Positions 175-17,760 of a DNA stretch of 64,000 nt are shown piece after piece. The DNA comes from an uncultured Thermoanaerobaculia bacterium. Its GTDB lineage: Bacteria; Acidobacteriota; Thermoanaerobaculia; Gp7-AA8. Below the pieces are notes generated by a model that was given only the letters and a program-made list of their open reading frames with translations, made no database searches and was not told where the DNA came from. Within the stretch, counting starts at the first letter, position 1. Every line of letters starts with the position of its first letter. The DNA lies in the NCBI GenBank assembly GCA_964558905.1, contig CAZLGP010000238.1:8231-72230 (forward strand). Direction: 5' to 3'. The translations under genes and the position numbers were made by a program.

Positions 175-298
175 GGGGGCGAGGGGAGGAGGGAAGGGCA
201 GATGCATGGTGCCGCATCGTAATGCAGCTCCGCTCCCGCGAAGGTGCGCGATCCAATCTGGCTCTACCCGAAGATATTCGAAATTCGAGAGTCAAAAG

Positions 299-567: not shown

Positions 568-2316
568 TCAGACCGTCGCGAACGCTCCTTCCCTCTCCAT
601 GGCGTGTGCCGATTCGTAGCGGATGGGCAGGTACTCCGGGAACCACATCGAGCGGCGGACGTTGTCTTCCAGGTTGATCAGCACGCTCGGGTCAGCGTGG
701 CCCTCGGCCACCGCGCGGCGGATGACCGCGCACGCAACGGCATGCGAGCAGTCGCGGATGCGCGACAGCCGCGGATACACGGCGCGTTGCTCGAGATCCT
801 CCGCCGTGACCGTCGACGCCAGCGCCTTGGCCGCGTCGAGGAACATCCCGTCGCTGATGTGCCGCGCCCGGGAGACGCACACGCCCAGCCCGACACCGGG
901 GAAGACGAAGGCGTTGTTGCACTGGCCGATGCGGTACGTGCGGCCGTCGAAGTCCACCGGATCGAACGGGCTGCCCGTCGCCACGATGGCGCGGCCGTCC
1001 GACCAGCGGATGGCGTCTTCCGCGGTGCACTCGCTCTTCGACGTCGGATTGGAAAGCGGGAAGATCAGAGGCCGCTCGTTGAAGCCGGCCATCATGCGCA
1101 CGACGTTCTCACTGAACGTTCCGGGAGTGGCGGAGACGCCGATGAGGATGGTCGGTTTCGCATTCGCGATCGTCTCTTCGAGGGTGATCCGGGAACGATC
1201 GCCGACTTTCCACGTCGCGGCCTCCTGCGGGTCGCGCGCGTACAGCGCCTTGAAATCCTCCAGGCCGCCCCGGTCGCTCGTGACCAGGCCCTTTGTGTCC
1301 ACCGTCCAGACGCGGCCGCGTGCTTCGTCGCGCGTCAGACCCTCTTCCATGAGCGCGGCCACGAAGAGGTCCGCGATCCCATGCGCAGATGCGCCCGCGC
1401 CGGCGAAGACGAGGCGCTGGTCCTTCATCGAATGCCCGGTCATGCGCATGGCCGAGTAGATGCCGGAGAGCACGACGGCGGCCGTGCCCTGGATGTCGTC
1501 GTTGAACGTCGGGAGGGAGTGACGGAAGCGCTCCAACTGCTTGATGGCGTTCCCCTTCAGGAAGTCTTCCCACTGCAGGAGGACGTGCGGGTAGACCTTG
1601 CGGACGGCGGCCACGAAGCGGTCGATGAAGTTCTGGTACTCCTCGCCGCGGATGCGTTTCTGCCGCAGTCCGAGATACAGCGGATCGTTCAGGCGCTCCT
1701 CGTTGTCCGTGCCGACGTCCAGGGTGATGGGCAGCGTGGAGTACGGCGCGATACCCGCGCAGAGCGTGTAGAGACAGAGCTTGCCGATGGGGATGCCCAT
1801 GCCGCCCGCGCCCTGATCGCCGAGGCCGAGGATGCGCTCGCCGTCGGTGACGACGATGACCGAGGGTGAGGTGTGGAAGTTCGCCAGGACTTTTTCGATG
1901 CGGTCGCGCTGATCGTAGCTGATGTAGAGGCCGCGACCCCGGCGGTAGATGTGCGAGTACTTCTGGCAGGCCTCGCCCACGACCGGCGTGTAGACGATGG
2001 GCATCATCTCGTCGATGCGCTCGTGGACCAGCCGGAAGAACAGCGTCTCGTTGCGATCCTGGAGGCTGATCAGGAAGACGAATTTCTCCAGATCGGTGGG
2101 CTTGGCCAGGAAGTTCTCGTAGAGGCGGTCGAGCTGCTGTTCGATCGTCGCTACGGCCGGCGGAAGGAGCCCGTGCAGATCGAGCTCGTCGCGCTCGCGG
2201 GCGGTGAACGAGGTTCCCTTGTTCGTGAACGGATCCAGGAGCAGGGCTTTGCCTTTGACGGGCGTGGCAATGTACCGCTGCCACGTGGCGGGATCGACTT
2301 TGATGGAGAAATTCAT
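568..2316 (-). CDS. maeA: NAD-dependent malic enzyme
   Basis: ORF 568..2556 trimmed to the ATG at 2316 (MNFSIKVDPATWQRY...). Full-length similarity to malic enzymes, e.g. FTNKGTSFTARERDELDLHGLLPP, DGERILGLGDQGAGGMGIPIGKL, FNDDIQGTAAV, VFAGAGASAHGIA. The 80 codons upstream of this ATG look non-coding. Confidence 0.92.
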   Translation of the reverse strand: MNFSIKVDPATWQRYIATPVKGKALLLDPFTNKGTSFTARERDELDLHGLLPPAVATIEQQLDRLYENFLAKPTDLEKFVFLISLQDRNETLFFRLVHERIDEMMPIVYTPVVGEACQKYSHIYRRGRGLYISYDQRDRIEKVLANFHTSPSVIVVTDGERILGLGDQGAGGMGIPIGKLCLYTLCAGIAPYSTLPITLDVGTDNEERLNDPLYLGLRQKRIRGEEYQNFIDRFVAAVRKVYPHVLLQWEDFLKGNAIKQLERFRHSLPTFNDDIQGTAAVVLSGIYSAMRMTGHSMKDQRLVFAGAGASAHGIADLFVAALMEEGLTRDEARGRVWTVDTKGLVTSDRGGLEDFKALYARDPQEAATWKVGDRSRITLEETIANAKPTILIGVSATPGTFSENVVRMMAGFNERPLIFPLSNPTSKSECTAEDAIRWSDGRAIVATGSPFDPVDFDGRTYRIGQCNNAFVFPGVGLGVCVSRARHISDGMFLDAAKALASTVTAEDLEQRAVYPRLSRIRDCSHAVACAVIRRAVAEGHADPSVLINLEDNVRRSMWFPEYLPIRYESAHAMEREGAFATV

Positions 2317-2556
2317 GACGCCTCCTCGGCAGGCCGGCACGGCCGGCAGCGCTGCCTGGCCAAGCCCTCGGGAAGGTCTGTCGCCCGAGGCGCGGTCTTC
2401 TGCCGCGCAGCAGCACGCACAGCTAACGACAGACGCCGCCCCGGGACGGGTGCGTGCCGGTTGAGCCGAGCGTGATGGACAGCACTGCGCGAAGGTGACG
2501 GGAGGCCGGCGCGCCTCCTCGTTCGTCCCCTCGGGCGCGTCCCGCGTGGCGGGCAA

Positions 2557-2740
2557 GAGGAAATAGCCCCCGGCTTCAGGCCGTGTTGCCCGAATGCCCG
2601 CGTAACGGGCGATAGGAGTAGCCCCCGGCTTCAGGGCGTGTTGTCCGAATGCCCGCGTAGCGGGCTATAGGGAGTAGCCCCCGGCTTCAGCCGGGGGACC
2701 CGGGCCTGGCATCCGATCAGCCCGCGTAGCGGGCGAAAGA
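2557..2740. repeat. Three tandem copies of a ~55-bp REP-like unit (CCCCCGGCTTCAG... hairpin plus GCCCGCGTAGCGGGC hairpin)
   Basis: Units start near 2557, 2613 and 2668. Each contains agcccccggcttcag and cccgcgta(a/g)cgggc. The same two hairpin modules recur at 25501-25550, 50055-50140 and 50625-50790. Confidence 0.85.
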
Positions 2741-2787
2741 GTTGTCGACGCGTCACACCGAAGGTGGGTGCCCGGTGTTGACTCCGG

Positions 2788-3207
2788 TCAAGCCTCAGTG
2801 ACGGCTTCCCGGTCGCGCCTCTTGCTTCGGACTCGGATGAAGTGCCGGCTGTAGGCATCTTCGAGTGGTGGCTCTCCCGATCTCGAAAACCGCAGCCGCG
2901 TCTTCGGTCCCTTTCCCCAACGATGGTAGACGGTGGTGGACGGCCGGAGGTTGAGATCATGGACGTGCATTCGCAGGATTCTCAGGACACGGTTGGCCGC
3001 CGAGAGATTGCACTGAATGACTCTCTCGAGACACGAGACGCGACCTCGCCGCCAGTCCTCGACGGCTTTCGTCGTGAGCAACTTCATCTCGATGAAGACC
3101 TCGATCGGAGCGACGACGTCGCCTCTCGAGAGGAGAGCGTCGACCGCACGGACGATCCTCGGATAGAACTTGTCGGTGCGGTAGTTTTCGAGAGTGACCT
3201 TCTTCAT
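2788..3207 (-). CDS. Hypothetical protein (139 aa), family not recognised
   Basis: Clean ORF starting MKKVTLENYRTDKFYPRIVRAVDALLSRGDVVAPIEV. A ~95-bp, ~88% identical, permuted fragment of its 5' end lies at 4205-4300 on the other strand, which argues that this is a real gene family. Confidence 0.5.
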   Translation of the reverse strand: MKKVTLENYRTDKFYPRIVRAVDALLSRGDVVAPIEVFIEMKLLTTKAVEDWRRGRVSCLERVIQCNLSAANRVLRILRMHVHDLNLRPSTTVYHRWGKGPKTRLRFSRSGEPPLEDAYSRHFIRVRSKRRDREAVTEA

Positions 3208-3214
3208 CTGAAAT

Positions 3215-3544
3215 TCACGTTGGTATGGTGACGTGGAGTACCTGACCAGGTGAGACGCTGCTAATCGCGTCCCTCAATGGCTTCAACGCGCGCTCGAGCA
3301 CTTGCAGTTGGAGGCGTGGAGTCACGATGACGACAACGCCGATTCCGAATGCGGTCAGCTTCTGCTGGTATTGCATCCGACGATCCGCGGTGAGCAACAC
3401 ATCAAAGTTGCCCTCGGCGCGTAGCAGCAGTTCGCCATTCTTGTAAGAGCCCCACCCTTCCTCTTGAACCGTTCGGACTTCGAATTCGGGAAGGTTACGC
3501 CGAAGCAAGCGCGGCAGGTTCTCGTCAAACAGGACTCGTCTCAC
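3215..3544 (-). CDS. DUF5615-type PIN-like toxin (Mut7-C-like RNase fold)
   Basis: MRRVLFDENLPRLLRRNLPEFEVRTV...DVLLTADRRMQYQQ is typical of DUF5615 proteins. GTG start overlaps the upstream DUF433 stop (GTGA). Confidence 0.75.
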   Translation of the reverse strand: MRRVLFDENLPRLLRRNLPEFEVRTVQEEGWGSYKNGELLLRAEGNFDVLLTADRRMQYQQKLTAFGIGVVVIVTPRLQLQVLERALKPLRDAISSVSPGQVLHVTIPT

Positions 3545-3756
3545 GCGATTTCTGCGAGCAGCGCTCGGCTGGCCTCTTCGAGAAATGCGAAGACCTGCTC
3601 CCGCGACACGCCCGGGTAGTTCTCCAGGAAGTCTTCGATCGTCTCACCGCCCTCGAGGAAATCGATGAGCGCATCCACCGGCACTCGTGTTCCTACGAAC
3701 ACCGGCGTGCCGCCGAGAATCTCCGGGTCGGAGTGTACGATCTGCTTCGGATCCAT
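3541..3756 (-). CDS. DUF433 antitoxin-like protein
   Basis: 71 aa. PEILGGTPVFVGTRVPVDALIDFLEGGETIEDFLENYPGVSREQV is the DUF433 signature. 4-nt overlap with the DUF5615 gene. Confidence 0.8.
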   Translation of the reverse strand: MDPKQIVHSDPEILGGTPVFVGTRVPVDALIDFLEGGETIEDFLENYPGVSREQVFAFLEEASRALLAEIA

Positions 3757-3893
3757 GACGATGAAGGATACCGCGCGGCCTGGTCGCAGCCAACGCCCGC
3801 CACGGCGAGAACCGAGGTGCCCTCGATGCCTTCTCCAAACTACCCGACCACAGCCTCATCACTTCTATGCGAAATGCCGCGTGATCTGCGACT

Positions 3894-4112
3894 TCACAGC
3901 TTGTCGAGATCAAGAGGCTCTGTCAACCCAGCGCGGTACTCTTGACGTGCTTCTTCAGCCATGCCAGCGAGCAAGTCCTGTGATCGCGCGAACAGTTCGC
4001 CCCACCGGCGTTCGGATTCGAGTTCGGCCAGCATGAAGCCGGCGAAGGCTTCCCGCTCCTCTTCAGGGAGTTTGGCCGTCTCAGCGATGACTTTCTCCAA
4101 AAACCTGCCCAT
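3894..4112 (-). CDS. Putative type II antitoxin / addiction-module component, orphan
   Basis: 72 aa, MGRFLEKVIAETAKLPEEEREAFAGFMLAELESERRWGELFARSQDLL. Resembles small antitoxins that pair with RelE/ParE-type toxins. No intact toxin ORF in the 138 bp downstream. Confidence 0.45.
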   Translation of the reverse strand: MGRFLEKVIAETAKLPEEEREAFAGFMLAELESERRWGELFARSQDLLAGMAEEARQEYRAGLTEPLDLDKL

Positions 4113-4204
4113 GAGGGTGCATTCTACTCGCGAGGGGGCTGGAGAAGAAACGGGAACCGAAACGTCCTGGCGATCTCGCGGGCTACACAGATGACTCGCC
4201 TCAC

Positions 4205-4300
4205 CGTGCGGTCGAGGCGCTCGTCTCGAAAGGCGACGTCGTCGCCCCGATCACTCTCGACAACTACCGCACCGACAAAGTTCTACCCGAGGATCGTCCC
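4205..4300 (+). pseudogene. Circularly permuted, frameshifted fragment of a paralogue of gene 2788..3207
   Basis: Plus-strand translation RAVEALVSKGDVVAPI|TLDNYRTDK(frameshift)FYPRIV. The intact gene reads TLENYRTDKFYPRIVRAVDALLSRGDVVAPI. One extra A causes the frameshift. Confidence 0.55.
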
Positions 4301-4312
4301 AGCCCGCGCGTC

Positions 4313-4900
4313 ACGAATCGGTGATGACCCTGGCGGCCGTGGCGGAAATCGGACCGCGACCTCGCGGAAATGGTCCACGACCGCGTCGAAATGGTCCGCG
4401 ACCTCGTCATTGCGATCAGTGACCTCACGGAAGAGGAGAGATTCTCGGACGCATGACGCCGCACGATCTCGAGAAAATGGTCGGGGATCCCACGTTTGTG
4501 ATTGGCGACCCCGAGCAATTGGTCTGTGACCCAACGGATTCGGTCGGCGACCGGATCCATTGGGTGGCACGACTGCCAGCGAGGGGTACCGCGATGGGAC
4601 ACGCCGGTGCTCGAAAGCAGGTGAAAATGGTCCACATACCTCGCGCGTGAGGTCGGGCAACCATTTCGATGCGGTCGCGAACCTTACGCGTGCGGTCGAC
4701 GACCATTTCGGCGCGGTGCCGGACCATTTTCGCGGAGCTCGAGCGAGGGCCCGCGCCGCGGCGCGGCAGCCACGCGCGCGGTGCGATCATCTCACGCGTG
4801 AGGTCGCAGACCGGATCGGTGCGGTCGGGGACCGGATCGCCGGCATGCTCGGACCGACCGCGTGCGATCGCCGTTCGGATCTCCGACGTCGGGGAAACGG
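4313..4900. repeat. Two inverted arrays of degenerate 21-bp repeats (about 10-11 units per arm)
   Basis: Left-arm units such as gaaatggtccacgaccgcgtc / gaaatggtccgcgacctcgtc start at 4345, 4367, 4388, 4409 ... 4557, keeping 21-bp phase. Right-arm units such as gaccatttcggcgcggtgccg start at 4659, 4680, 4701, 4722 ... 4852 and are the reverse complement. Near-palindromic centre at ~4625-4655. No long ORF spans the array. Confidence 0.8.
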
Positions 4901-4998
4901 AATGCCGGCGACGGACGACCGCGATCGTGTGGTCCCATGACCTCTTGACAGAACATCTGCCTTCGCGTTCAAAGGGCAACATACGAGGGGACACGAAA

Positions 4999-5259
4999 AT
5001 GAAGAAGATCGACGACTTTTCAAGCGGCACGCGCGGAGCGGTCGTTCCCGTCCCGCAAGGCAAGACGCGCATCACCATCCGGATCGATGACGACGTCCTC
5101 GATTGGTTTCGGGACCAGGTGAATGCCGCTGGTGGTGGAAACTATCAGACGATGATCAACAGCGCTCTCCGGGAGTTCATCGAGAATCGACGCGCGCCGC
5201 TCGAGAAGACGATTCGACGCGTGATTCGAGAGGAGCTTCGGAAGCGCGGCGCTGCGTGA
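4999..5259 (+). CDS. BrnA-type (ribbon-helix-helix) antitoxin, orphan
   Basis: 86 aa from the ATG at 4999. GKTRITIRIDDDVLDWFRDQVNAAGGGNYQTMINSALREFI is the BrnA antitoxin signature. A short upstream reading frame ends in ATGA overlap (...RVQRATYEGTRK*) and may be the last remnant of BrnT. Confidence 0.8.
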   Translation: MKKIDDFSSGTRGAVVPVPQGKTRITIRIDDDVLDWFRDQVNAAGGGNYQTMINSALREFIENRRAPLEKTIRRVIREELRKRGAA

Positions 5260-5329
5260 GACAGCTAGTCGCGACGGTCACCGCAGCTCTCTCCCTGGCG
5301 ACCATCTATCCGGATGCGCCGACGTTCTC

Positions 5330-5883
5330 GCTGTTCGACGCCGAATGATCTCGTGTGCGTCTGCGGGTCTCTTCGGTCAGCCCAACGCCTCGAACTGCGG
5401 TCGAAGGCGAAGACGGTGATGATCGCTGCGACGTGTCGCCACTCCGGTTGGACGCGTTCTGCGCTCGATTCCATTCCTCGGCGCCGTCCGTGTGGCGCAG
5501 ATGCTGGCCATCATGCGGACGCCACACCGCTTCCGAACGAAGCGGAATCTGTGGCCCTATGCCGGCCTGGCGGTGGTCAAGCACTCGAGCGCCGATCACG
5601 AATTCAAGGACGGCAAGTTGCAACGAACGAAGAAGCCACCGATGACACGGGCTTGAATCGGAACCACAACCCGATGCTGAAGGTGGTGTTCAAGGGAGCG
5701 GCGAATGCGGCCGCCTCGATGCCCGGGCCGTTGCGCGCCTTCTATGAGGCCTCGGTCGCACGAGGTGTCAAGGACGAACTGGCAAAGGTGACGCTGGCAC
5801 GCAAGATCGCGGCCGTGGCACTGCGCCTCTGGAAGCGTGGAGAGACGTTCGATGCGAAGAAACTGACGACGCAAGCGACATAG
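5330..5883 (+). pseudogene. IS110-family transposase, C-terminal remnant with several frameshifts
   Basis: Pieces in three frames: SIPFLGAVRVAQMLAIMRTPHRFRTKRNLWPYAGLAVVKHSSADHEFKDGK, then GLNRNHNPMLKVVFKGAANAAA...LRAFYEASVARGVKDELAKVTLARKIAAVALRLWKRGETF. The N-terminal DEDD catalytic domain is absent. Confidence 0.65.
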
Positions 5884-6339
5884 CGCTCGGGGAGACGACG
5901 ATCGGCGAGAGAGGGTAAGCCACTTCGCGGTCGACGTTGATCCGGGACGAAGGTTCGAGGGAGAGTCTCAGCAACGACGTTCCGCCCGACAGTCAGTAAA
6001 GTCGAGGCACACGCCTAACCACAGTCCCCCTCGGATGACCAGAAGAAGCGTCAGGCCACGCCCGGATGCAGAGAGCGCGAGTCTCGGATAGAACCATGCG
6101 ACACCACCAACGGTGATTGCCGGCGACGCTTGGAATCGTCTGTAGTGATGATCGACGGAGGCGATGGAGATGAGCTCGCGGCGCACGACTGTTCCGCCCA
6201 CCCTGGTGTCCTCACGATCGGCGCGAACCGGTTGCGGCGTGACGCCGTGACGCTGGCGACGATGCAGGCAGCTCGGCTGCCGGACCTGGGCCGGGCCGTG
6301 CCAGCTGCAGTCAAGAGTCAGGCCGCCCGTGCTCGCAGC

Positions 6340-6981
6340 TCATTGACCAGTTCCGCCAGACGGTCCTACGCGCGACCTTGGGTCTGGTGCCCAATTTTCC
6401 AGCTGAAGTTCGGTAATATCATCAGCGTTGAGAACATAAACCTTGGCATCGCGCGCGAATCGATCAACGAGGATATATCTTCCTTCGGTATAGGCGGCTA
6501 CCATTAGGCCTCGATACTGAGGAGCGAGCTGACCTGTTTCTAACTTGACACTAACAACGCGCGCACGTTGGGACGGGCCAATGAATGCTTGCGCCGTCCA
6601 ACTGACCAAAAGCACGGTTACGAACAACGTGAAAGCTATCGCGACAGCTAGCTGCCGACTCGTCAGCGTTCGTGCGAGATTGCGCCAAGCGAAGGGCTTT
6701 CCCCGCTGTCGCTCGATCGCGTGAGCAACCCAATCAAGCAAAAGCAATGGGAGTACAAACAGAAGAAGCCCCAAAGCCCCGCCGTCCATCAGGTATTCTT
6801 GTAACGGTAGCCGCGGGATCAACTCCTGCGGAACACCACGATAGAAGTATGTGGCCGAGTCGGCGGCAAATCTCCACGCGAACAGCAGCACCGACGCGAT
6901 CGCGAGGGCACCGGCCGAGTCGCTGACAATCTTGAACCGTGCAGGCGGTATCTCAGAGGCATTCGCGGGTGGCATCGCCAT
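6340..6981 (-). CDS. Hypothetical multi-pass membrane protein (start uncertain; ORF extends to 7245)
   Basis: Hydrophobic segments GALAIASVLLFAWRF, GGALGLLLFVLPLLLLDWV, LAVAIAFTLFVTVLLVSW. Visibly lower GC than the flanks. Start at MAMPPANASE (6981) chosen by eye. Confidence 0.5.
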   Translation of the reverse strand: MAMPPANASEIPPARFKIVSDSAGALAIASVLLFAWRFAADSATYFYRGVPQELIPRLPLQEYLMDGGALGLLLFVLPLLLLDWVAHAIERQRGKPFAWRNLARTLTSRQLAVAIAFTLFVTVLLVSWTAQAFIGPSQRARVVSVKLETGQLAPQYRGLMVAAYTEGRYILVDRFARDAKVYVLNADDITELQLENWAPDPRSRVGPSGGTGQ

Positions 6982-7472
6982 ACCGCAGGAGAGTCCGGAG
7001 CGCGCCCTTTCCCTACCCACCGTACCATTCTTTTCCGTCAGCAGCTTACGCACGCTTCGAAAACGTGTCACCTCCCTGGGAATCGATCTTGCCGACGTCT
7101 TCAGGCATTCTCTTACTATCGGTCGGCCCAAACTAACGTCTTTGGTGTAAGCTGCGGCGGGCTTCACGTGCCAGGAACGATGCGGCCGGCGTGACGCCGT
7201 GACGCTCGGTGATTCCGTAGCCGGCTCGGTCGGAGGGCCGGGCACCAGCCCGCCGACAGCTTCACACCTAAGTTAGGCGGCCACCTAGCCGCGCCGGCTA
7301 CAACAGGAAATAAACTGGTCGGTTATTTTGAGTTGTCGCGGCCAACTTTAGTGCGGGTGTTGCCGCCACTGCCTCGAAAGTGCCCTTCGTCTGTTTTCGG
7401 TAACTTACAGGAGCGGTCTCTTAGCAGCAGGCCGGGTGGAAGTACTTCACGCTGATTTCGGTTCCTCTCGGT

Positions 7473-8351
7473 ATGGCGAGGCCGAAGCTACAGCATCACC
7501 TCCCGAAAGCGTACCAGACGGGATTCTGCCACAAGGATCGGTTGTGGGTGTATGACCGCGTGACGGATCGTTTTCGACGCGACAGCCCTCGAAACGTAGG
7601 CGCCATCAAGGACGACTATACGTTTGATGTCGGGCAGGGTATCGATGCGCGGCTGGAGACAGGCCTGTCACGTGTTGATGGCGCCGCCGTGCCAGTGCTC
7701 GCAAAACTTCGAGCGCAGCGCTCAATCAGCGGCCAGGAACGACAAGCGTTCGCAGAGTACCTTGCGTACTTTGTGGTGAGGGTGCCCGGATTCACTAGGT
7801 GGCTGAACGAGGTTTATACGATCGAAGAGTGCGCCGACACCGACCCGGTTGCCGTCCAGGAGCTTGTTGACGCCACAAATGGTGACTTCTTCGATCCGCC
7901 CTGCGGCACCACTGCACGACTACAAACGTTCCTAACTGAGCATCGTGTCGGAAACGTACACCAAAACCATCGTCTCCACTTCCTCATCGAAACCGCGAAG
8001 ACGTTGCGTGTTGAATTTTACCGAATGGATTGGGTGATGGCTCGGCCACAGCCGTCGGCACAATTTGTCACATCCGATAACCCGTTGCTGTGGGGCTCGG
8101 AAGCGATCTCGTTCCCTGTCGCGCACGATGCTTGTTTACTAATGTTCCCGGGCGATGGCGCCACGGAGTGCTACTGGACGGCTCTGATGCGGCGTGATGT
8201 GGTCCACAGCACAAACGTGTCGACGGCTCGACACAGCGAACGGGTTGTAATCTCGCCCGACGAGAAGTACTTGCGGCGAATCGTTGAGGCGGCGGCAATC
8301 AAGGGCCGGCCTTCTCCTCCGTTGACTAGGATCGCGAATTCGTCCGCCTAA
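7473..8351 (+). CDS. DUF4238 domain protein
   Basis: 292 aa. The N-terminus HHLPKAYQTGFCHKDRLWVYDR matches the characteristic HH-x-P-x-x-Y-x-x-x-F start of DUF4238. Lower-GC islet. Confidence 0.7.
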   Translation: MARPKLQHHLPKAYQTGFCHKDRLWVYDRVTDRFRRDSPRNVGAIKDDYTFDVGQGIDARLETGLSRVDGAAVPVLAKLRAQRSISGQERQAFAEYLAYFVVRVPGFTRWLNEVYTIEECADTDPVAVQELVDATNGDFFDPPCGTTARLQTFLTEHRVGNVHQNHRLHFLIETAKTLRVEFYRMDWVMARPQPSAQFVTSDNPLLWGSEAISFPVAHDACLLMFPGDGATECYWTALMRRDVVHSTNVSTARHSERVVISPDEKYLRRIVEAAAIKGRPSPPLTRIANSSA

Positions 8352-8566
8352 CGTATCACGCCTTGAGGGGTTCCGCGGACGGTCATCCGTTGCTGGCACG
8401 CACGTGGATCGTGCAGGTACGCGGAGCCTCATAGAAACGTGCCACCGCGAAGATGTTAGTTCGTCGGCCTAATCCTTAGCGCTCAGCCGCCGAAACCGCA
8501 CGCGCTACTGTAGCACCCACGCTGCTGGTGAGGCGGTTTCGGTCGGCTGGAGCGCAGAGTTAGCCG

Positions 8567-10417
8567 TCACGCTTCGGCAAGGGCTGCTTGTTGACCTCTC
8601 GGTTTAAGTGATCCAAGTTTCGAGCCGAGCGATCGACGTATCGCAAAATCCAAGTGATACCGCGGCATGATGGCCGCCGTAAGCGCTTCCTCGGAAAGCG
8701 CCCGCCTGATGTCCTCTCCTGACCACTGGCTCGCCCCTTCGAGTGATTGAACACCCATCACTGCTTCGACGAGACTCTGTTCAAACCATTCCGTTACGAC
8801 CTCCTCAACCGTTGGGCGCGCTCCTGGCCCGTCGGAGTACAGCTTGCAGAAACGCTCAACCATGTCGTGGAAGACGCGAAAGTCTCCGTTGATCTGCAGA
8901 AGGTTCTGCTCTTTGAGATAGGTCGCGGCCCGATCGTCAAGAAATCCAGGCTGACGGGTGCCGTCTTGAACACGTACCCACATCACGGCGGGAAAGGGGT
9001 CAGCCTTTATTTTCAGAGCGGGATCGCCGGTTTGTGTTGCAAAAGCTGCGTAGACATTCCCAGCGCGACCACCGCTAGACCCGCCACCACCTTCACTGGG
9101 CTCGCGTGCTCCACTCCCATCTCGCGCCGTTCTTCCGCCCCGGCGGGGCACGTCATCGTCAACGAAGAACGATCCGGCTGGAGACGGCCGGTAGCGACTC
9201 AGTCGAAAGAGGTCTGCAATCTGCTTCAGACGCTCCCGAATGCTTTGGGCGTGGTCGCGGTTGACTCCTGCCGCTGCCGCTTCCTCGATGACGGCGCGCA
9301 CTTCGGGAGGAAGACTGTCGCGAAATTCAGAGGCCCAGTCCGCCCAAGGTAACGGATCGCTATTCAGCAGCAGCTGAGTGCGCGCGGTAGTGGGGCTCAG
9401 TTCGGTGCCGGTTCCAGGTTTCGGTTCGACGTAGATGACAACTCGGTTGTAGCCTAGGATTACCCCAAACTGCTGCAGGCGGGCAACTCCCGACCGGGAC
9501 GTCTCAATTTCATACAGTTCATCGCGATAAAGAGCAGCGACGTGGCCGCTCGAATTGATGAACCCTGAGTTTTGGCTTAGCGCGGATTCGTCTCTCAGCA
9601 CCCACCAGTGGGCTATGGCGTTTGAGAGGCTCACGTCCCCTTTCCCTGAGGCGTGATCGTCGAGATAGGCTTGCTGCCCAATAACGTTTCGGAGAAGGTT
9701 GCGGTCACCGTCGATACGGGGGTTCTCCCAACCTTCGCGTGCTTTAACTGTGACGCCGGCCGGGAATGTGAAGTAGCGCGTGTTCAGATACTTCGCGATC
9801 CACCTTGAAGGACTAGCCGTGCCAATCGGCGCCCGCATCGTGTGTTCATCGTCCGCGTTTCCAAGGAGAACCACCATCGTCCCGTGATCGCCAAGAATGT
9901 CGGGTTTCACTGAGTTTTCAATTGGGAGCCAATCGTTGAAAGTTCCGTCTGGAAGTTCGAACCGGCGGAGTCCGTACTGGCCGGTTCGAGGGTCGCGCCA
10001 GAGGTGGATCATGGCGCCTGCGCCACCGGTCCACGACAGGTACATGAGCCCCACATGGTTTCGCGTCGCCGCCGCAATCTTGGCGCCCACACCGAAGTTC
10101 CCGTCATGCGACTGAAGGGTGCTCGAGGAAGACAGTTGATTGATGTATTTCACCATCTCCGGCCCCGTCATCCCAATCCCGGTGTCAATGACGGCCAACT
10201 TGTAGATGCCGTCCCGTTCAAGGTCAAACTTCGTCCAGTCAACATCCCATCGGATCTCGCCGCGCGGGTCAGGCAGCTTGAGGATTGCTTCGATGCTGTT
10301 CTGCGTCAGCTCACGAACAAACTGAAGCGGAGCGCAATCCCGACCAAGGCGGTCGAGCATGAAGCCCATGTTGTCGATGGTGAGGGGAGATGTCTCGCGG
10401 GAAAGCTGTTTCGACAT
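8567..10417 (-). CDS. GHKL (Bergerat-fold) ATPase, MORC/HATPase_c_3-like, 616 aa
   Basis: ORF trimmed to the ATG at 10417, with AAGGAG 7-12 nt upstream. N-box FVRELTQNSIEA, G1 box AVIDTGIGM, G2 box GNFGVGAK. The long C-terminal region has no domain I recognise. Confidence 0.8.
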   Translation of the reverse strand: MSKQLSRETSPLTIDNMGFMLDRLGRDCAPLQFVRELTQNSIEAILKLPDPRGEIRWDVDWTKFDLERDGIYKLAVIDTGIGMTGPEMVKYINQLSSSSTLQSHDGNFGVGAKIAAATRNHVGLMYLSWTGGAGAMIHLWRDPRTGQYGLRRFELPDGTFNDWLPIENSVKPDILGDHGTMVVLLGNADDEHTMRAPIGTASPSRWIAKYLNTRYFTFPAGVTVKAREGWENPRIDGDRNLLRNVIGQQAYLDDHASGKGDVSLSNAIAHWWVLRDESALSQNSGFINSSGHVAALYRDELYEIETSRSGVARLQQFGVILGYNRVVIYVEPKPGTGTELSPTTARTQLLLNSDPLPWADWASEFRDSLPPEVRAVIEEAAAAGVNRDHAQSIRERLKQIADLFRLSRYRPSPAGSFFVDDDVPRRGGRTARDGSGAREPSEGGGGSSGGRAGNVYAAFATQTGDPALKIKADPFPAVMWVRVQDGTRQPGFLDDRAATYLKEQNLLQINGDFRVFHDMVERFCKLYSDGPGARPTVEEVVTEWFEQSLVEAVMGVQSLEGASQWSGEDIRRALSEEALTAAIMPRYHLDFAIRRSLGSKLGSLKPRGQQAALAEA

Positions 10418-11163
10418 GGTCAACTCCTTGTGAGAGGTAGGATTGCGACCTCTCGCTTGAAGGTGGAGCCGTGATGAAGCAGCAAAATGGGAGGCGACGC
10501 GCCTGCGACTAGCTGCAGCAACACTGCACCGGGTTGTGCGAATTGTACACCGGCTTCGCTTCGACACTCGCGACGCCCAACTTGATTTCGGTCGGCCCTG
10601 GACCGCGTTTCCGCAGCGTAGCACGGCCCAGGGCCATCAAGACGCCGGCGGTCATGCGACTCATGGCAGGTCCAGGGCTCGGTACGCCGCGGGCGCCGCA
10701 GGGTCATGGACGTGCGCCGAGACTCCATCGGTGGTCGTCGCCTCTACGCGTGGTGGAGCACCGCCGCGTGAGTTGTTAGATAAGGCGTTATGCGACGTTG
10801 CCAGGAGAGGTGCGGATAACGCGTGATGCAACGGCCTTCGGCGGCGGGCACTCCGGCGCTCGAGTGAGACTGGAATCCTCGCGTCGCGAGGACATTGGTC
10901 CGCGCGATGTGAGGTTCAGTGCCGGAGATCACCGGAGAGCACCGGAGATCATAAGGTCCCGCACCCCCTCCCTCCGCATCTGAGGCACTGCCCGGAGTCG
11001 TGGTCGCTTCTTCGGGGATCGGCGACTGCTTGTCAACCCCTCGTTTGACCGTGTCCTGAGGCGGACCAAGCCGGCGGTGCGGGCCAGGCGGCTGTGGCGG
11101 CGCCGGACTCGTAGGTCCGGCGCCGTGCATCTCAGCGGAAAGTAGTGGTCTCCTGGCGAGCCG

Positions 11164-11334
11164 TCATAGCGTCCCGAGGGCATGCAGCACTTCTTGAAAA
11201 CGCCTCCCGGAGCCGCAGGGGCAGGGGTCGTTGCGGCCGAGCTTTTCGAGCAGCTCTTTGTCGCCGTGGACGATCCGGATGCCGCGCTTCACGCGGGTTT
11301 CGGACGGATAGCCTTTCCGGCGTTTGCTGCTCAC
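11164..11334 (-). CDS. Small SEC-C motif protein, probably frameshifted at the motif
   Basis: (V)[56 protein letters not shown] 1-nt shift after GSGRR would read [13 protein letters not shown], completing the canonical CPCGSGxxFKKCC motif. Confidence 0.45.
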
Positions 11335-11448
11335 TTCAAAAGCAGAGATCCTCGTGGTTCTTACGCATGATGTGCCTCCTTGCCCATTGTGGGCGCGAGA
11401 GGATCGCACACATCGCCCCGCGCGCACCACCACCACCTCCATCGTGAT

Positions 11449-11535
11449 GCGGAAGGACGCAGGTCGGATGCAGGTCGGAATGATGAGTATGGGTGATGAG
11501 TGCGAGGGGGCGATCCCACTCATCACTCATCACTC
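11449..11535. repeat. Hairpin of tandem GATGAGT-type heptamers
   Basis: gaatgatgagtatgggtgatgagtgcgagggggcgatcccactcatcactcatcactctcat; the arms are reverse complements. Confidence 0.75.
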
Positions 11536-11628
11536 TCATGCCTTCCCGCTGGAGCGCGGCCGCCGGACAATCGTAAACGCGGCGCGGTGCTCCTCCCTCG
11601 TCCTCCAGGCGAGTGATAGCATCCGTTC

Positions 11629-11859
11629 ATGCCAGTCGCGGCAGACAGAGATGAGCTCCGAGCATGGATCGCGGGTCACGAGATCGCGAACGGGCGGCAA
11701 CGCGATCGGGTGGCGGCGATGAGTGCTGATGAGAAGCTTCGCCAGATCAGCCGGCTGATGGCCTCTGCGAGCCTGTTCGACATGTCGCGTCGCGCCGCGG
11801 GCGATCGTGCTGTGATCGAGCTGTGGCAACGGTTGCGGGCGCGCTGGCCGAGAGCCTAA
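11629..11859 (+). CDS. Hypothetical small protein, coupled to the downstream nucleotidyltransferase (possible antitoxin-like partner)
   Basis: 76-aa ORF. Its stop overlaps the next start (TAATG). Confidence 0.5.
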   Translation: MPVAADRDELRAWIAGHEIANGRQRDRVAAMSADEKLRQISRLMASASLFDMSRRAAGDRAVIELWQRLRARWPRA

Positions 11860-12428
11860 TGACGGCACAGGACGAACACCTGCGCGAGACTCTCGCCGAT
11901 CTCATGCGGTGGATCTCGGCGGAGCGACTCGAGGCAACGGTGATTGGGGGCATTGCCGCCGGCCTGCATGGACAACCACGGCTCACGGAGGACGTTGACG
12001 CCGTCGTTCTCGGCGCAGATGCGGAAGGGCTTGTCGCATCGGGGAAGCTGTATGGGTTCGAGCCACGCATTGCGGACGCTCTGGAGTTCTCGCGGCGCAC
12101 GCGCGTTCTACTGCTGCGACATCGATCCGGTGTGGATCTCGACGTGTCGTTGGGTGCCCTGCCCTTCGAGAAGGAAGTGATCGAGCGGGCCAGAGTGATC
12201 GATGCGGGAGGTCTCCAGATCAGCGTGGCTGCTCCGGAGGACATCATCATCATGAAGGCACTGGCGCGGCGTCCTCAGGATATCGCGGACATCGCCGGAA
12301 TCATCGAAGTTCAAACCGACCTCGATGTCGACCGGATTCGTCGCTGGGTGCGCGAGTTTTCCGCCATCCTCGAAATGCCGGAGATTCTCGACGATCTGGA
12401 GTTGTTGTTGCGCCGCAGAAGTCTCTGA
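11858..12428 (+). CDS. Nucleotidyltransferase-fold protein (MNT / DUF6036-like)
   Basis: ATG at 11858 (MTAQDEHLRE...). VIGGIAAGLHGQPRLTEDVDAVV is the GG-x(n)-D-x-D minimal nucleotidyltransferase motif. Confidence 0.7.
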
Positions 12429-12460
12429 CTGGTCGAGCGAATGGCCATCAACGTCGTCAC
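12299..12460 (+). repeat. Direct repeat copy 1 (functional 3' end of the nucleotidyltransferase gene)
   Basis: ~162 bp, roughly 90% identical by eye to 13289-13451. Confidence 0.85.
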
Positions 12461-12479
12461 GCGTACCTCCTCCCCCCAC

Positions 12480-12516
12480 GGAGCCCTACCCAGCACTCAG
12501 CACCCAGCACTCAGCA
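12480..12516. repeat. Tandem heptamer tract (CAGCACT/CAGCACC), same family as 25338-25398 and 51761-51849
   Basis: cccagcactcagcacccagcactcagcactcc, between convergent genes. Confidence 0.75.
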
Positions 12517-12522
12517 CTCCCG

Positions 12523-13305
12523 TCACCGCCCCTGCAGCTTGCGCAGCGCGGCCTGCTTGAGCTGCATGTTCGTCCCTCCGCGGGCGATGGCCCGCACCTC
12601 GGAGTCGGGGAGGGTGGGGAGGATGCGCAGGGCGAAGGCGGGCGGGGTCTTGGGGTTGTGGACGAGACCGGTGCGGACGTCAAGGCTCGACATCCACTGG
12701 GTCGCCTTCATGATCACCTCGGCGATCTGGTAGGTGAGGAACGACGACTTCGCCAGTCGCGCGACCTCGTCCACGGTGAGTCTGGGGTTGCGCAGCAGGG
12801 AGAGGAGCACGCGGGGGTCGTTGTCCTGGAGGAGGAGCGCGCGCTCGGCGCGGTCGGCTTTCACGGCCAGGAGGATCTTCTCCATTTGCGAGAGCGTGCG
12901 CATGCGATCCCAGGCGTTCCCGGGCTTCTCGTCGACGGCCGCCTCGTCGATGGCCACGGGCTTCGTCATGAGGCGCGCGAGCCGCTCGCCGGCGTCGCCG
13001 TCGATCGCGAGAGCGAGTCCGTCGGCGAGGGTGCCGACTACGGTCGCCTTGGTGTACGCCTCTCCTCCCCACGGTCCGCGCAGCGTCACGAGCAGCGTCG
13101 TGTGCAACGGGACGCTCTCCGTCGTCGGAAGGCGGAGTGCGCCGAGGGAGAGGTTGGCGGCGTGCTCGGCGCGGAGCTCGTCTTCGCTCTCGAGCTCCGC
13201 GGTGAAGGCGGCGGTTCCGGTGCGCTCGACCTTCACTCGGGCGTCACCCGATCGGCGATTCGCATCGGCGCATCGTAGCTGAAGGACGGAATCATCGACG
13301 TTCAA
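12523..13305 (-). CDS. PilZ-like N-terminal domain protein with C-terminal helical-repeat region (start uncertain; ORF open to 13440)
   Basis: Near-canonical PilZ motifs ANRRSGDAR and NLSLGA. C-terminal repeats LLLQDNDPRVLLSLLRNPRLTVDEVARLAK ... GLVHNPKTPPAFALRILPTL. The first in-frame canonical ATG (13440) lies inside the antisense of the duplicated NTase fragment; a TTG at 13305 is an alternative. Confidence 0.6.
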   Translation of the reverse strand: MNVDDSVLQLRCADANRRSGDARVKVERTGTAAFTAELESEDELRAEHAANLSLGALRLPTTESVPLHTTLLVTLRGPWGGEAYTKATVVGTLADGLALAIDGDAGERLARLMTKPVAIDEAAVDEKPGNAWDRMRTLSQMEKILLAVKADRAERALLLQDNDPRVLLSLLRNPRLTVDEVARLAKSSFLTYQIAEVIMKATQWMSSLDVRTGLVHNPKTPPAFALRILPTLPDSEVRAIARGGTNMQLKQAALRKLQGR

Positions 13306-13451
13306 ACCGATCTCGATATCGACCGGATTCGTCGCTGGGTGCGCGAGTTTTCCGCCATCCTCGAATGCCGGAGATTCTCGACGAACTGGAGTTGTTGTTA
13401 CGCCGCAGAAGACTCTCACTTTTCGGCGAACGGCCATCAACTCGTCGTCAC
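13289..13451 (+). pseudogene. Direct repeat copy 2: duplicated, frameshifted 3' end of the nucleotidyltransferase gene
   Basis: Aligns to 12299-12460. A 1-nt deletion (cctcgaaatgccgg becomes cctcgaatgccgg) breaks the frame. No upstream gene body. Confidence 0.8.
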
Positions 13452-13621
13452 ACCATCACTCATCACCGTAGGGCGAGTCCTACGGAAGGTTGCGGCAGAC
13501 GCCGACGGCGTCCATCTGTCCGCCGGAGTACCGTTCGATTTGCAGAGAATCTTAAGGAGTTAGGTCTAGTCCCATCGAAGGGGTGTGGCTTCGCCAGCCT
13601 TCATCGCCGGCCAGACCAATC

Positions 13622-14098
13622 ATGTCAGTCGCGGATCGAGACGCCATGTCGACGCTGGTCGTTTTCGAAGTGGAAGGGCTGCGCCTCGCGCTTCCGCTGG
13701 ATCAGGTGTTGCGGGTCGTGCGGAGCGTGGAGATCACGCCCTTGCCGGCCGGCCCCGAGATCGTGCGCGGTGTGATCAACCTGCATGGAGAGGTTGTTGC
13801 GGTGATCGACGCGCGGCTCCGTTTCCGCCTGCCACAACGGCCCCTGTCGATCCACGACCAATTCGTCATCGCCCGCGCCAGGGAGAGGATCCTGGCGCTC
13901 ATCGTCGATTCGGTCGACGGCATTCGTGAGTGCCCACCCGAGGATGGAGCGAAGGGGGATGCGATCGTGCCGGGTCTCGAATATGTCTCCGGCGTGGTCC
14001 GGCTCGGCGACGGGCTGGTCGTGATCCACGACCTCGACACCTTTCTATCACTGGCGGAGGGGCGCGATCTCGACCGCGCGCTGGCGCAGCATGGGTAG
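13622..14098 (+). CDS. cheW: CheW-like coupling protein
   Basis: LVVFEVEGLRLALPLDQVLRVV...GVINLHGEVVAVIDARLRF...LIVDSVDGI...VIHDLD is a typical CheW domain. Confidence 0.9.
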   Translation: MSVADRDAMSTLVVFEVEGLRLALPLDQVLRVVRSVEITPLPAGPEIVRGVINLHGEVVAVIDARLRFRLPQRPLSIHDQFVIARARERILALIVDSVDGIRECPPEDGAKGDAIVPGLEYVSGVVRLGDGLVVIHDLDTFLSLAEGRDLDRALAQHG

Positions 14099-15674
14099 GA
14101 CTGCGCCGCTGTCGCTCCCGAGCCAGTGCGTCTCCGCGGTCGGCAAGCTGGTGAGCGCGACGATGGGCCTGCACTTTCCAGCCGAGCGAGCGGCAGACCT
14201 GGAGCGTGCGCTCACTGGTGCCGCACGCGATGCCGGTTGCAGTACCGTCGTCTACGCGAACGCCTTGCTCCGCGAAGCCCGCATCGGTGGCGCAGAAGCG
14301 CGTCGGCTGCTCGAGGCGCTGGCCGGTCACATCACCGTCGGCGAGACCTACTTCTTTCGCGAGCCCTCCGCGCTTGCGGTCTTCGAAGGCGAGATTCTTC
14401 CCGAGCTGATTCGCGCGCGCAGCGCGGATCGGCGCATCCGCATCTGGAGCGCGGGCTGCTGCACCGGCGAGGAGCCGTATACGATCGCGATGATTCTCGA
14501 CCGGCTTCTCGGGGACGCCGACGACTGGAACATCAGCATTCTCGCCACTGACATCACCCCCCGGTTCCTTCACAAGGCCGTCGATGGCGTGTACGGAGAG
14601 TGGTCCTTTCGCGGGATGCCACCGGAAGCGCGCGCGCGGTGGTTCCGGAAGAGAGCGGACGGCCGCTGGCAACTGCGCGAGAGCATTCGCAGAAAGGTCA
14701 CCTTTTCCTGTTTGAATCTCGCCGCGGACTCCTACCCGTCACTGCTCAGCGGCACGAACGCGATGGACGTCGTGTTCTGCCGCAACGTCTTCATCTACCT
14801 CGCGCCGGCGCAATCGAAGGAAGTGGCGCGGAAGCTCCATGACTCGCTCGTCGACGGTGGCTGGTTGATCGTCGGCGTGGCCGAAGCGTCGCCGGAGATT
14901 TTCGCACCGTTCTGCGCGGTGCCGACGACGGGCGGAACGCTGTATCGGAAGGGCGAGCATCGCGGCGACCGTGCTTGCCAGGTGTCGGGGAGTCTGCGCG
15001 GTAGAACGTCAGGCGCGTTGCGCCGCCCGAAGCCGCGACCCTCGAGTGCATCCGTGAAGTCCCGTGAGGCGGAGCAACCAGCGCTGCCGGCCGTGCCGGC
15101 TGGCGTCCATCCCCCGACCGGCCCGAAGCCGGTCGCGGCGTCTCCAGGAACGCGCACCCCCGCTGGCCTGCTCCGACCTTCGCCCGGAAGGCGAAAACAG
15201 CGAGCTGCCGCGGCGCAACCGGCGGATCGTGCCGCGCGCAGTCACGAGTTGCTGGCGTCCGCCCGGCGCTCCGCGAGCGAGGGGAAGCTACGCGATGCGG
15301 CGGAGTGGTGTGGGCGCGCCGTCGAGGCCGACAAGATGAACCCAGCGACCTACTATCTTCTCTCCGCGATTCAGAGCGAGCTGGGGGAGCAGGATGCGGC
15401 CGGCCGTTCGCTGAGTCGCGCCCTCTACGTGGACGACGGATTCGTTCTCGCGCATTTCGGCCTGGCGAACCTCGATCTCGCGCGAGGACGAAGGACCTCG
15501 GCGAAACGCCACCTCACCAACGCGCTCGTCGCACTCCGCGGGCATGCGAACGAGGAGATCCTCCCGGAATCCGACGGACTGACCATGGGGCGCCTGAAGG
15601 AGATCGTCACCACGCTCCTCGCCGCCATCGCGTCTAACCATCCGCGGGCAATTGACGAGGGCGCAGGCGAATGA
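14091..15674 (+). CDS. cheR: CheR-type MCP methyltransferase with C-terminal TPR region (WspC-like)
   Basis: ETYFFREPSALAVF, IRIWSAGCCTGEEPYTIAMIL, VFCRNVFIYL. C-terminal helical repeats NPATYYLLSAIQSELGEQDAA. 8-nt overlap with cheW. Confidence 0.9.
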   Translation: MGRTAPLSLPSQCVSAVGKLVSATMGLHFPAERAADLERALTGAARDAGCSTVVYANALLREARIGGAEARRLLEALAGHITVGETYFFREPSALAVFEGEILPELIRARSADRRIRIWSAGCCTGEEPYTIAMILDRLLGDADDWNISILATDITPRFLHKAVDGVYGEWSFRGMPPEARARWFRKRADGRWQLRESIRRKVTFSCLNLAADSYPSLLSGTNAMDVVFCRNVFIYLAPAQSKEVARKLHDSLVDGGWLIVGVAEASPEIFAPFCAVPTTGGTLYRKGEHRGDRACQVSGSLRGRTSGALRRPKPRPSSASVKSREAEQPALPAVPAGVHPPTGPKPVAASPGTRTPAGLLRPSPGRRKQRAAAAQPADRAARSHELLASARRSASEGKLRDAAEWCGRAVEADKMNPATYYLLSAIQSELGEQDAAGRSLSRALYVDDGFVLAHFGLANLDLARGRRTSAKRHLTNALVALRGHANEEILPESDGLTMGRLKEIVTTLLAAIASNHPRAIDEGAGE

Positions 15675-16279: not shown

Positions 16280-16292
16280 AAGGAGGCTATGA

Positions 16293-17744: not shown

Positions 17745-17760
17745 CCGCCGGGGACGGGCG

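Follow-up and report, generated by a model that had tools for sequence, protein, structure and literature searches.

A solitary GHKL ATPase gene and its structured RNA leader in a low-GC islet of an uncultured Thermoanaerobaculia bacterium

A 64,000-nucleotide stretch of DNA from an uncultured Thermoanaerobaculia bacterium (GenBank assembly GCA_964558905.1, contig CAZLGP010000238.1, positions 8,231 to 72,230; hereafter the window) contains an islet of lower GC content in which a membrane protein, a DUF4238 protein and a GHKL ATPase are encoded next to one another. Do these three genes constitute a defence module, as the first-pass annotation of the sequence proposed, and if they do not, which of them deserves attention? 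The comparison of loci presented here shows that the three are unrelated single-gene passengers that are neighbours by chance. The proposed module thereby dissolves, and the interest of the locus lies instead in the pairing of the ATPase gene (8567-10417, minus strand, 616 residues) with a structured RNA that precedes it. The explanation that we favour, with moderate confidence, is that of an islet of unrelated passengers in which the ATPase gene is a self-contained cassette encoding a clamp-type protein, with translation controlled by the leader RNA and a role in conflict or stress.

Ninety ATPase loci, 89 of them from other organisms, were collected with up to 10 kb of flanking DNA on each side; 80 of them came from a scan of one genome per species. 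When these loci were searched with the DUF4238 and membrane proteins by tblastn, matches were obtained only in L001, which is a second assembly of the same organism. It is a 4.4-kb Logan contig carrying an identical ATPase and the same DUF4238 neighbour, and its DNA is 100% identical to the window over 6811-11224. The loci of the nearest DUF4238 homologues (L094 and L095) and membrane-protein homologues (L096-L099) contain no GHKL gene and no other partner of the trio. Because the genes do not co-occur in other genomes, an outcome that the annotation itself had listed as a refutation, the trio is not a module. A single uncharacterised three-gene defence system would account for the adjacency of the genes in one low-GC islet among toxin-antitoxin (TA) genes, and both a DUF4238 protein, validated as a single-gene anti-T7 system (PMC9122126), and GHKL domains, present in defence proteins such as VcSduA (PMC12137116), are known from phage defence. 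We nevertheless regard such a system as extremely unlikely, given that the trio is absent from the 89 other ATPase loci and from the homologue loci, that the only repeat of the arrangement belongs to the same organism, and that the genes form separate, divergent and convergent, transcription units. The caveat of the annotation that the genes may be independent cargo has thus been upheld.

The ATPase gene always stands alone, without a conserved neighbour. All-against-all clustering of the open reading frames (ORFs) within 6 kb on each side of the gene in 84 loci identified no recurrent partner, and neither this clustering nor Pfam searches of the 150 nearest ORFs revealed the conserved superfamily II (SFII) helicase, methylase or endonuclease neighbourhood of the MORC/paraMORC restriction-modification type. 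On long contigs with ATPase homologues at 59-80% identity the neighbours all differ (integrase fragments, PhdYeFM, housekeeping enzymes, nSTAND plus SIR2). The Pfam matches among the 150 ORFs include 4 integrases, 3 AAA_15/21 ATPases, 2 SMODS proteins, 3 transposases, 2 DUF3800 proteins and many housekeeping families.

DNA similarity between the window and the nearest loci (73-74% identity) is confined to 8554-10535, which corresponds to the ORF and ~118 nucleotides (nt) upstream of it. Alignment of the upstream regions exhibits conserved blocks within otherwise unalignable DNA. The region harbors a structured 5' leader RNA, and its elements in the window are the following.

10542-10547, minus strand: -10-like hexamer TACAAT, 22 nt upstream of the leader match
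10406-10520, minus strand: structured 5' leader RNA of ~115 nt, matched by the covariance model and including the ATG at 10415-10417
10479-10516, minus strand: leader module 1, comprising the P1 5' strand (10508-10516), CGC (10505-10507), the P1a hairpin (10492-10504), CCC (10489-10491) and the P1 3' strand (10479-10488)
10455-10478, minus strand: leader linker, containing pyrimidines
10432-10454, minus strand: leader module 2, comprising the P2 5' strand (10448-10454), the loop CGCAAUCCU (10439-10447) and the P2 3' strand (10432-10438)
10424-10429, minus strand: Shine-Dalgarno sequence AAGGAG

Inspection of 80 loci together with simple stem searches showed that one module occurs twice in the leader. 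In module 2 a stem of 6-11 bp whose sequence is free, for example GAGAGGU/ACCUCUC, GGAAAAGC/GCUUUUCC, UUAAAGU/ACUUUAA or GUGCAAU/AUUGCGC, is closed by the loop CG(C/U)-N2-6-CC(U/C), and the module ends 2-15 nt 5' of the Shine-Dalgarno sequence. Module 1 presents the same elements in the order of outer stem, CGC, variable inner hairpin, CC(U/C) and return strand. A covariance model (R1) was built from 34 sequences and used to search both strands of 85 sources amounting to 1.48 Mb. It yielded exactly one match in 69 of the 85, always on the coding strand and immediately before the ATPase start; 35 of these matches lie outside the seed. The second-round model (R2) added four matches, including one on an independent Caballeronia replicon, bringing the total to about 73 loci (for example L027:1237-1353, L002:7898-8012 and L100:5872-5985); it found none in the distant viral relatives, in unrelated loci or in the rest of the 64-kb window. 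Within ~1.9 Mb of sequence the motif occurs only before the ATPase family.

The covariation is of the textbook kind. In the 69-sequence alignment 87.5% of cells are paired, compared with 63.6% in shuffles and 36-49% in slid controls; changes on both sides of a pair number 266 versus 87 in shuffles, the covariation score is 0.69 versus 0.26, and each of the 15 pairs shows compensatory change, although these pair counts lean toward the model, a bias mitigated by the simple stem searches and by RNAalifold on an unfitted alignment. The latter, applied to a MAFFT alignment, recovered the same three helices, with compensatory change in 14 of 15 predicted pairs, and placed a lone G-C pair inside each CGC/CCY loop that is G-C in 33 of 34 sequences. 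Because G.U pairs outnumber A.C pairs 96 to 27, the structure is that of the sense strand and hence of the transcript. The unpaired loop C, G and CC are retained in 63-69 of the 69 sequences. Searches against Rfam 15 gave no match at E<=1 in window positions 6000-11000 and none at E<=10 in L027 1000-1500. The leader exists, covaries, is read on the coding strand and is linked exclusively to the ATPase gene, and it is an undescribed cis-acting RNA that the annotation had overlooked.

Three known kinds of element were considered for the leader and rejected. An integron attC or other single-stranded DNA recombination site does not suit its fixed distance 5' of the Shine-Dalgarno sequence and ATG, the -10 box of its own upstream, or the 96:27 ratio of G.U to A.C, which fits a sense-strand RNA; nor does the leader contain attC core boxes. 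A type III toxin-antitoxin RNA repeat was dismissed, as no terminator separates the modules from the ORF and there are two modules only. Module 2 is not a tRNA T-arm: with the stem in its covarying register the loop has 9 nt, and no tRNA was identified by ARAGORN in window positions 1-20000.

The upstream hexamer is a probable promoter of the ATPase cassette. This assignment rests on positional enrichment across loci: in 52 of 69 loci a TANNNT hexamer is located 17-32 nt ahead of the leader, compared with 14 of 69 in a control window and an average of 24 in shuffles, which shows a positioned -10 box. On the 3' side no conserved flank or terminator common to the ATPase loci was found. All 69 sequences have an ATG or GTG at the aligned start position, and the start codon and Shine-Dalgarno sequence, conserved in 69 of 69 loci, place the start of the 616-residue protein at 10417. 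The open frame (8567-10624, minus strand) continues 69 codons upstream to a GTG, giving a 685-residue ORF that overlaps the leader and promoter. Because of this extension a gene caller that selects the longest ORF would misannotate the ATPase start.

How widespread is the protein behind this leader? A word search returned more than 2162 relatives. The best 120 share at least 58% identity and range from 526 to 664 residues, with nearly all of them between 590 and 625, and almost none has a name. When 1.84 billion representatives of clusters at 50% identity were searched with a profile, 858 matched at E<=1e-30 and 1783 at E<=1e-10; among the best 150 representatives the full-length ones have ~600 residues and align over their entire length, the shorter ones being fragments. 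In a scan of 185,579 species genomes the gene was detected in at least 180, a lower bound since the scan relies on two peptide patterns. These genomes represent at least 12 phyla, across which the protein keeps 49% identity or more (Acidobacteriota, Actinomycetota, Planctomycetota, Verrucomicrobiota, Nitrospirota, Pseudomonadota, Cyanobacteria, Chloroflexota, Bacteroidota, Gemmatimonadota, Elusimicrobiota and Eisenbacteria). Mean column identity over 60 aligned homologues is 69%. The family is thus large, with at least 858 clusters at 50% identity, unusually conserved and almost wholly without a name, and in the published literature we found nothing specific to it or to the leader motif; no source name exists for any of the three window proteins. 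Cultured hosts are Pseudomonas migulae HY-2 (NZ_CP171224.1, with the gene at about 5,216,740-5,218,548), Couchioplanes caeruleus JCM 3246 and Caballeronia sp. M1242.

We considered and rejected an origin of the ATPase from phages or plasmids. GenBank phages gave no match, 72,556 plasmid records contained one full-length ATPase, on a 1.3-Mb Caballeronia replicon, and IMG/VR held only three distant relatives, none with the leader. The notion that the gene is a transposon-like unit was likewise abandoned, as a search for terminal repeats produced short chance repeats only. One of the IMG/VR relatives, at L091:10001-11806 on a contig of 228,619 bases classified as viral, is full-length and 37% identical to the ATPase, with no detectable leader. 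In two other loci, L014:10001-12109 and L082:10001-12345, the stretch matched by the ATPase in tblastn is 2.1-2.3 kb long rather than ~1.8 kb, which suggests an insertion or disruption within the gene.

The ATPase polypeptide is divided into four parts.

9818-10417, minus strand: Bergerat (GHKL) ATP-binding domain, residues 1-200, motifs I-IV invariant
9203-9817, minus strand: alpha/beta transducer (S5-like) domain and helices, residues ~201-405
9035-9202, minus strand: two short strands followed by a disordered Gly/Arg-rich linker, residues ~406-461
8570-9034, minus strand: conserved C-terminal domain, residues 462-616, as seen in the domain-only model

Membership in the GHKL superfamily is evident from the residues E36/N40, D78/G80/G82, G109/G111 and G179/T180, all invariant in 60 homologues. 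Family searches were less informative: Pfam HATPase_c aligned with E 7.3e-5, below the cut-off, the best PDB sequence match was TopoVI-B (E 0.9), and no usable match was obtained from PADLOC (E<=0.1), PHROG or NCBIfam. In the transducer domain of the same alignment the strand GVILGYNRVVIYV carries a nearly invariant R325, and R346 is invariant. Linker residues 422-461 are predicted with a local distance difference test (pLDDT) score below 50 and contain conserved RRGG(K/R) and GG(R/K)AG motifs. The C-terminal domain, modeled alone, comprises three strands and six helices with pLDDT ~85-94. It has no structural match in the PDB (best E 0.83) or BFVD (best E 0.086), and the model therefore appears to hold no nuclease, TIR or known DNA-binding fold; the nuclease or DNA-binding fold that the annotation had suggested looking for in this region did not materialize. 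Matches of the domain to IrrE/PprI-like proteins (probability <=0.35) were discarded, as it lacks the HExxH motif.

The AlphaFold2 model of the full ATPase has a mean pLDDT of 72. Foldseek aligned it at a probability of 1.00 with Hsp90 (E 5.7e-11) and with GyrB/ParE, MORC2/3/4, SMCHD1, the MutL N-terminal domain and TopoVI-B (1e-7 or better), the alignments spanning 400-600 columns. Those with the GyrB 43-kDa fragment, ParE, MORC2-4 and the MutL N-terminal domain cover 400-480 columns, longer than GHKL alone, and place the ATPase with the GHL-type proteins that combine GHKL and transducer domains. The earlier description of the protein as MORC-like is only loosely right. It holds for the GHKL plus S5 architecture. 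It does not hold for the MORC signature GhXhhpXXRhl, from which G318-V-I-L-G-Y-N-R325-V-V-I departs by one residue, with Arg at position 8 rather than 9, and the Hsp90, GyrB/ParE, MORC2-4, SMCHD1, MutL and TopoVI-B folds match about equally well. The ATPase belongs to an undescribed family within a known kind, the GHKL plus transducer ATPases.

Like the prokaryotic paraMORC proteins (Iyer, Abhiman & Aravind 2008, PMC2292703), the ATPase begins with a GHKL domain in which every ATP-binding motif is present, continues with an S5-like transducer bearing a conserved basic residue and ends in a C-terminal extension particular to its family; its distribution is likewise sporadic and laterally mobile, and a subset of paraMORC3 also stands alone. 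It differs in having no SFII helicase, methylase or endonuclease neighbour, in lacking the restriction-endonuclease (RE) fold, TIR or HxH C-terminal domain of paraMORC3/4/5, in missing the MORC motif by one residue and in its structured RNA leader, which is not described for MORC or paraMORC families. With VcSduA, a type I-D Shedu protein composed of GHKL and a DUF4263 nuclease (PMC12137116), it shares the single-gene organization, the N-terminal GHKL domain, a clamp-like middle domain and the location in islands. However, the C-terminal PD-(D/E)xK nuclease (RE-fold/DUF4263) of paraMORC3 and GHKL-Shedu was not detected by Pfam or PADLOC, nor as a nuclease fold in the PDB (best E 0.83).

The closest structural resemblance is to Hsp90/HtpG, and it raises the question of whether the ATPase is an accessory Hsp90/HtpG-like chaperone or stress protein whose leader is an RNA thermometer or another stress-responsive structure. 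The best fold matches are full-length Hsp90, the top NCBIfam matches are HtpG and an HSP90-family model, the length and the layout of N-terminal, middle and C-terminal domains with a linker are similar, and DTGIGMT and GNFGVGAK resemble the G1 and G2 boxes of Hsp90. Yet the NCBIfam scores of 18-21 bits fall far below the cut-offs of 371-455 (20.8 bits versus 371 for NF003555), the C-terminal domain alone does not retrieve the Hsp90 C-terminal domain, and the gene is accessory and rare rather than core. On the RNA side, thermometers need no invariant unpaired nucleotides, and the Shine-Dalgarno sequence is not inside P2. We consider a chaperone of this type quite improbable.

Taken together with the solitary gene, these features can be arranged into a mechanism. 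The gene travels as a widespread cassette that consists of its own probable promoter, a 5' untranslated region of ~118 nt, the Shine-Dalgarno sequence and the ORF, with no neighbour required. The protein would be a dimeric ATP-gated clamp of the MutL/Hsp90/GyrB/MORC kind with a conserved basic finger in its transducer domain, dimerisation being deduced from the fold, in which the C-terminal domain, devoid of a recognisable effector domain, would serve dimerisation or substrate binding and the Gly/Arg-rich linker may contact nucleic acid. The leader would set the translation of the ATPase, and we favour autogenous repression, in which the homodimer binds the two like modules; both the binding partner and the direction of control are conjectural. 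A precedent for such an arrangement is the E. coli thrS operator, an autoregulatory mRNA operator with duplicated hairpins that is recognised by a homodimer. The leader resembles operators of the thrS type and tandem-domain riboswitches in its two like stem-loops near the Shine-Dalgarno sequence, with conserved unpaired nucleotides and covarying stems, and it differs from both in that no Rfam 15 family matches it in sequence or structure.

Alternatively, a small ligand would bind the leader. As a riboswitch, the tandem CGC/CCY modules would take up a small molecule or ion, cooperatively or in tandem, and thereby change whether a pyrimidine tract of the linker pairs with the Shine-Dalgarno sequence, such that the ATPase is expressed in response to a metabolite or signal nucleotide. 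Many leaders do contain a CUUC/CCUU tract just 5' of P2 that is able to pair with the Shine-Dalgarno sequence, often with an upstream GAAG or AAGG as a possible competitor for the tract, and the mean probability of the Shine-Dalgarno sequence being paired is 0.68. Strict conservation is confined to unpaired nucleotides, the stems being free to vary, and tandem like modules are found in the glycine, guanidine-II and NAD+-I riboswitches. On the other hand, riboswitches usually control several gene families and this motif precedes only one in ~1.9 Mb, the function of the ATPase suggests no ligand, and the support for sequestration of the Shine-Dalgarno sequence is modest. We rate the riboswitch as rather unlikely and favour autogenous control over it because two like modules suit a homodimer and the motif is exclusive to the ATPase gene. 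In the broadest terms, and tentatively, the leader may represent a new class of cis-regulatory RNA, either a tandem-pocket riboswitch or an operator for its own product, controlling a new class of solitary, mobile GHKL clamps in at least 12 phyla that act on RNA or as effector-less immune or stress sensors.

The cellular role is the weakest step of the explanation. A conflict or stress function, such as single-gene phage defence, would follow from the patchy, horizontally transferred and island-associated distribution of the gene, from some of its defence and mobile-element neighbours and from the neighbours of distant relatives on plasmids. In its most specific form the ATPase would be a stand-alone anti-phage protein of the abortive-infection type, like the solitary paraMORC3 and GHKL-Shedu, and the leader would keep a toxic protein at a low level. 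We regard this as possible and lean away from it. Its rarity and patchiness, together with its presence across phyla at 49% identity or more, argue for horizontal transfer, and low-GC islands are where the gene is located. There are solitary GHKL proteins that act in defence, and in some loci the gene is accompanied by integrases, transposases, TA genes, CBASS cyclases, AriA/GajA-like ATPases or nSTAND plus SIR2. Distant plasmid relatives are found beside UvrD-helicase, ATP-binding and caspase-family genes. Against a defence protein stand the absence of a nuclease, TIR or other effector domain, the lack of a PADLOC match, the many housekeeping neighbours, a mean column identity of 69% that is unusual for fast-evolving defence genes, and the absence of the gene from GenBank phages and near absence from plasmids.

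One ATPase locus (L009:14064-17761 and L010) lies 4 kb from a pair of nSTAND1 NTPase and SIR2_2 genes (Avs/SIR2-like); loci in clear defence islands are a minority. On the Agrobacterium tumefaciens plasmid pAtK224b (L102:5004-10066) a distant relative is in an apparent operon with a second ATP-binding protein and a UvrD-helicase-domain protein, near a caspase-family gene, and on an Acidisoma plasmid (L101:4980-9050) another is in an apparent operon with a large TPR protein. These two relatives are 24-26% identical to the ATPase over its residues 1-331, and their loci may represent conflict systems of several genes that use a related GHKL module.

A number of observations weigh against the favoured explanation of a leader-controlled clamp with a conflict or stress role. 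A strict sigma-70 scan of the window found no full promoter. About 7-10 loci with intact upstream DNA have no detectable leader. The duplex between the Shine-Dalgarno sequence and the linker is only modestly better than in shuffled sequences (-7.3 versus -5.8 kcal/mol) and is better in 48 of 69 loci. That the ATPase dimerises and binds RNA is assumed, and no named homologue appears to point to its function. The association with defence genes is weak: PADLOC recognised 3 AriA/GajA/PtuA-like ATPases, 2 CBASS cyclases and 2 LmuB-like proteins among the 150 nearest ORFs, next to many housekeeping genes. Finally, the lack of an effector domain and of a PADLOC model and the unusually high conservation urge caution on a defence or stress role.

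Whatever its role, the family combines the engine of MutL, Hsp90 and MORC with an unmatched C-terminal domain and no partners, and its leader, absent from Rfam, is tied to it alone. An orphan RNA motif linked to a single uncharacterised enzyme is a rare entry point, in which the RNA offers a handle on what the protein senses or binds. Should the ATPase prove to be a clamp that serves defence or stress and has no effector domain, the range of known prokaryotic GHKL functions would grow; these functions are also of interest as relatives of eukaryotic MORC and SMCHD1.

What kind of DNA surrounds the cassette? The islet and its contents are listed below.

2750-10500, strand not applicable: lower-GC accessory tract, 59.9% GC by sliding profile, depressed from ~2.75 to ~10.5 kb
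3215-3756, minus strand: pair of DUF5615 (PIN-like, 3215-3544) and DUF433 (3541-3756), from Pfam
4669-5259: BrnA-like ORF
5444-5853, plus strand: frameshifted relic of an IS110-family transposase, C-terminal half (Transposase_20), from tblastn with the L096 transposase
6340-6981, minus strand: membrane protein of 213 residues with three hydrophobic segments and a soluble C-terminal part
7473-8351, plus strand: DUF4238 protein of 292 residues, Pfam PF14022, E 2.4e-22
11164-11526: SEC-C-motif ORF
11823-12428: DUF6036/AbiEii-type nucleotidyltransferase

The GC content of 6230-10430 is 58.7%, compared with 65.4% for the whole 64 kb, and the 4.2-kb segments of lowest GC in the window start at 6301 and 6401 (58.3%; mean 65.4%, standard deviation 2.2). 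The annotated islet is thus indeed poorer in GC than its flanks. Of its claimed extent, ~6.3-10.4 kb, the low GC is confirmed, whereas the depressed zone is wider, about 2.75-10.5 kb, and is itself part of an accessory stretch of ~2.6-13.4 kb bordered by the malic enzyme gene (568-2556, minus strand) and CheW/CheR (13583-15674, plus strand). The GC content at third codon positions (GC3) is 0.565 in the membrane gene, 0.655 in the DUF4238 gene and 0.634 in the ATPase gene, distinct from the 0.79-0.87 of the backbone (malic enzyme, CheW, CheR and the next large downstream ORFs). Because both GC and GC3 are depressed relative to the backbone, the tract probably belongs to a horizontally acquired accessory islet, as had been suggested. 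ARAGORN found no tRNA gene in positions 1-20000. The TA- and insertion-sequence-rich setting that was described is real, consisting of the DUF433/DUF5615 pair, the BrnA-like ORF, the IS110 relic, recognized as two tblastn segments in different frames at 37-41% identity, and the nucleotidyltransferase. The DUF5615/DUF433 genes are context genes outside the ATPase unit.

The annotation had also named the DUF4238 gene, the GHKL motifs and the membrane protein correctly, as judged by Pfam, the invariant motifs and the three hydrophobic segments. The DUF4238 protein scores 80.1 bits against a Pfam cut-off of 27 and covers profile positions 2-279 of 281; the public gene call has a later start and gives 267 residues. 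Its match to the PADLOC model DUF4238-Pers (23.2 bits, E 9.9e-6) is limited to residues 7-108 of the protein, the model having 309 positions, and one PHROG is likewise matched by the first ~100 residues only. A word search at E<1e-5 detected only two homologues, at 50% and 38% identity, with CopG, HTH and FRG genes as neighbours in L094 and L095. The window protein is a highly divergent member of its family that stands alone. A lone DUF4238 protein encoded in a P2 hotspot confers protection against T7 on E. coli (Rousset et al. 2022, PMC9122126), and by analogy the window gene is a plausible stand-alone defence gene. It resembles this system (Rst_DUF4238, PADLOC DUF4238-Pers) as a lone DUF4238 protein in an island and differs from it in matching the PADLOC model over the N-terminal third only and in having two detectable homologues. 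The convergent spacer between the DUF4238 and ATPase genes (8352-8566) contains a long-range inverted repeat, CCGAAACCGCC ... GGCGGTTTCGG, which may be a shared bidirectional terminator; the repeat has no T-tract and was not reported by a terminator scan.

For the membrane protein no family match was found, and PADLOC-DB v2.0.0 gave no match at E<=0.1 for it or for the ATPase; of the trio, only the DUF4238 protein was recognised by PADLOC, and that in part. Five homologues of the membrane protein, 58-71% identical, were identified, and IS110, HicAB, ParE, TIR_2 and IS21 genes occur around those in L096-L099. It is a real gene of a rare orphan family and independent cargo of the islet. The IS110 relic at 5444-5853 lies ~500 bp from it. 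In L096 (302-2920) and L097 an intact IS110 element is located near the homologous membrane gene, with an ORF of 170 residues between them, and the membrane gene may be travelling with IS110 elements.

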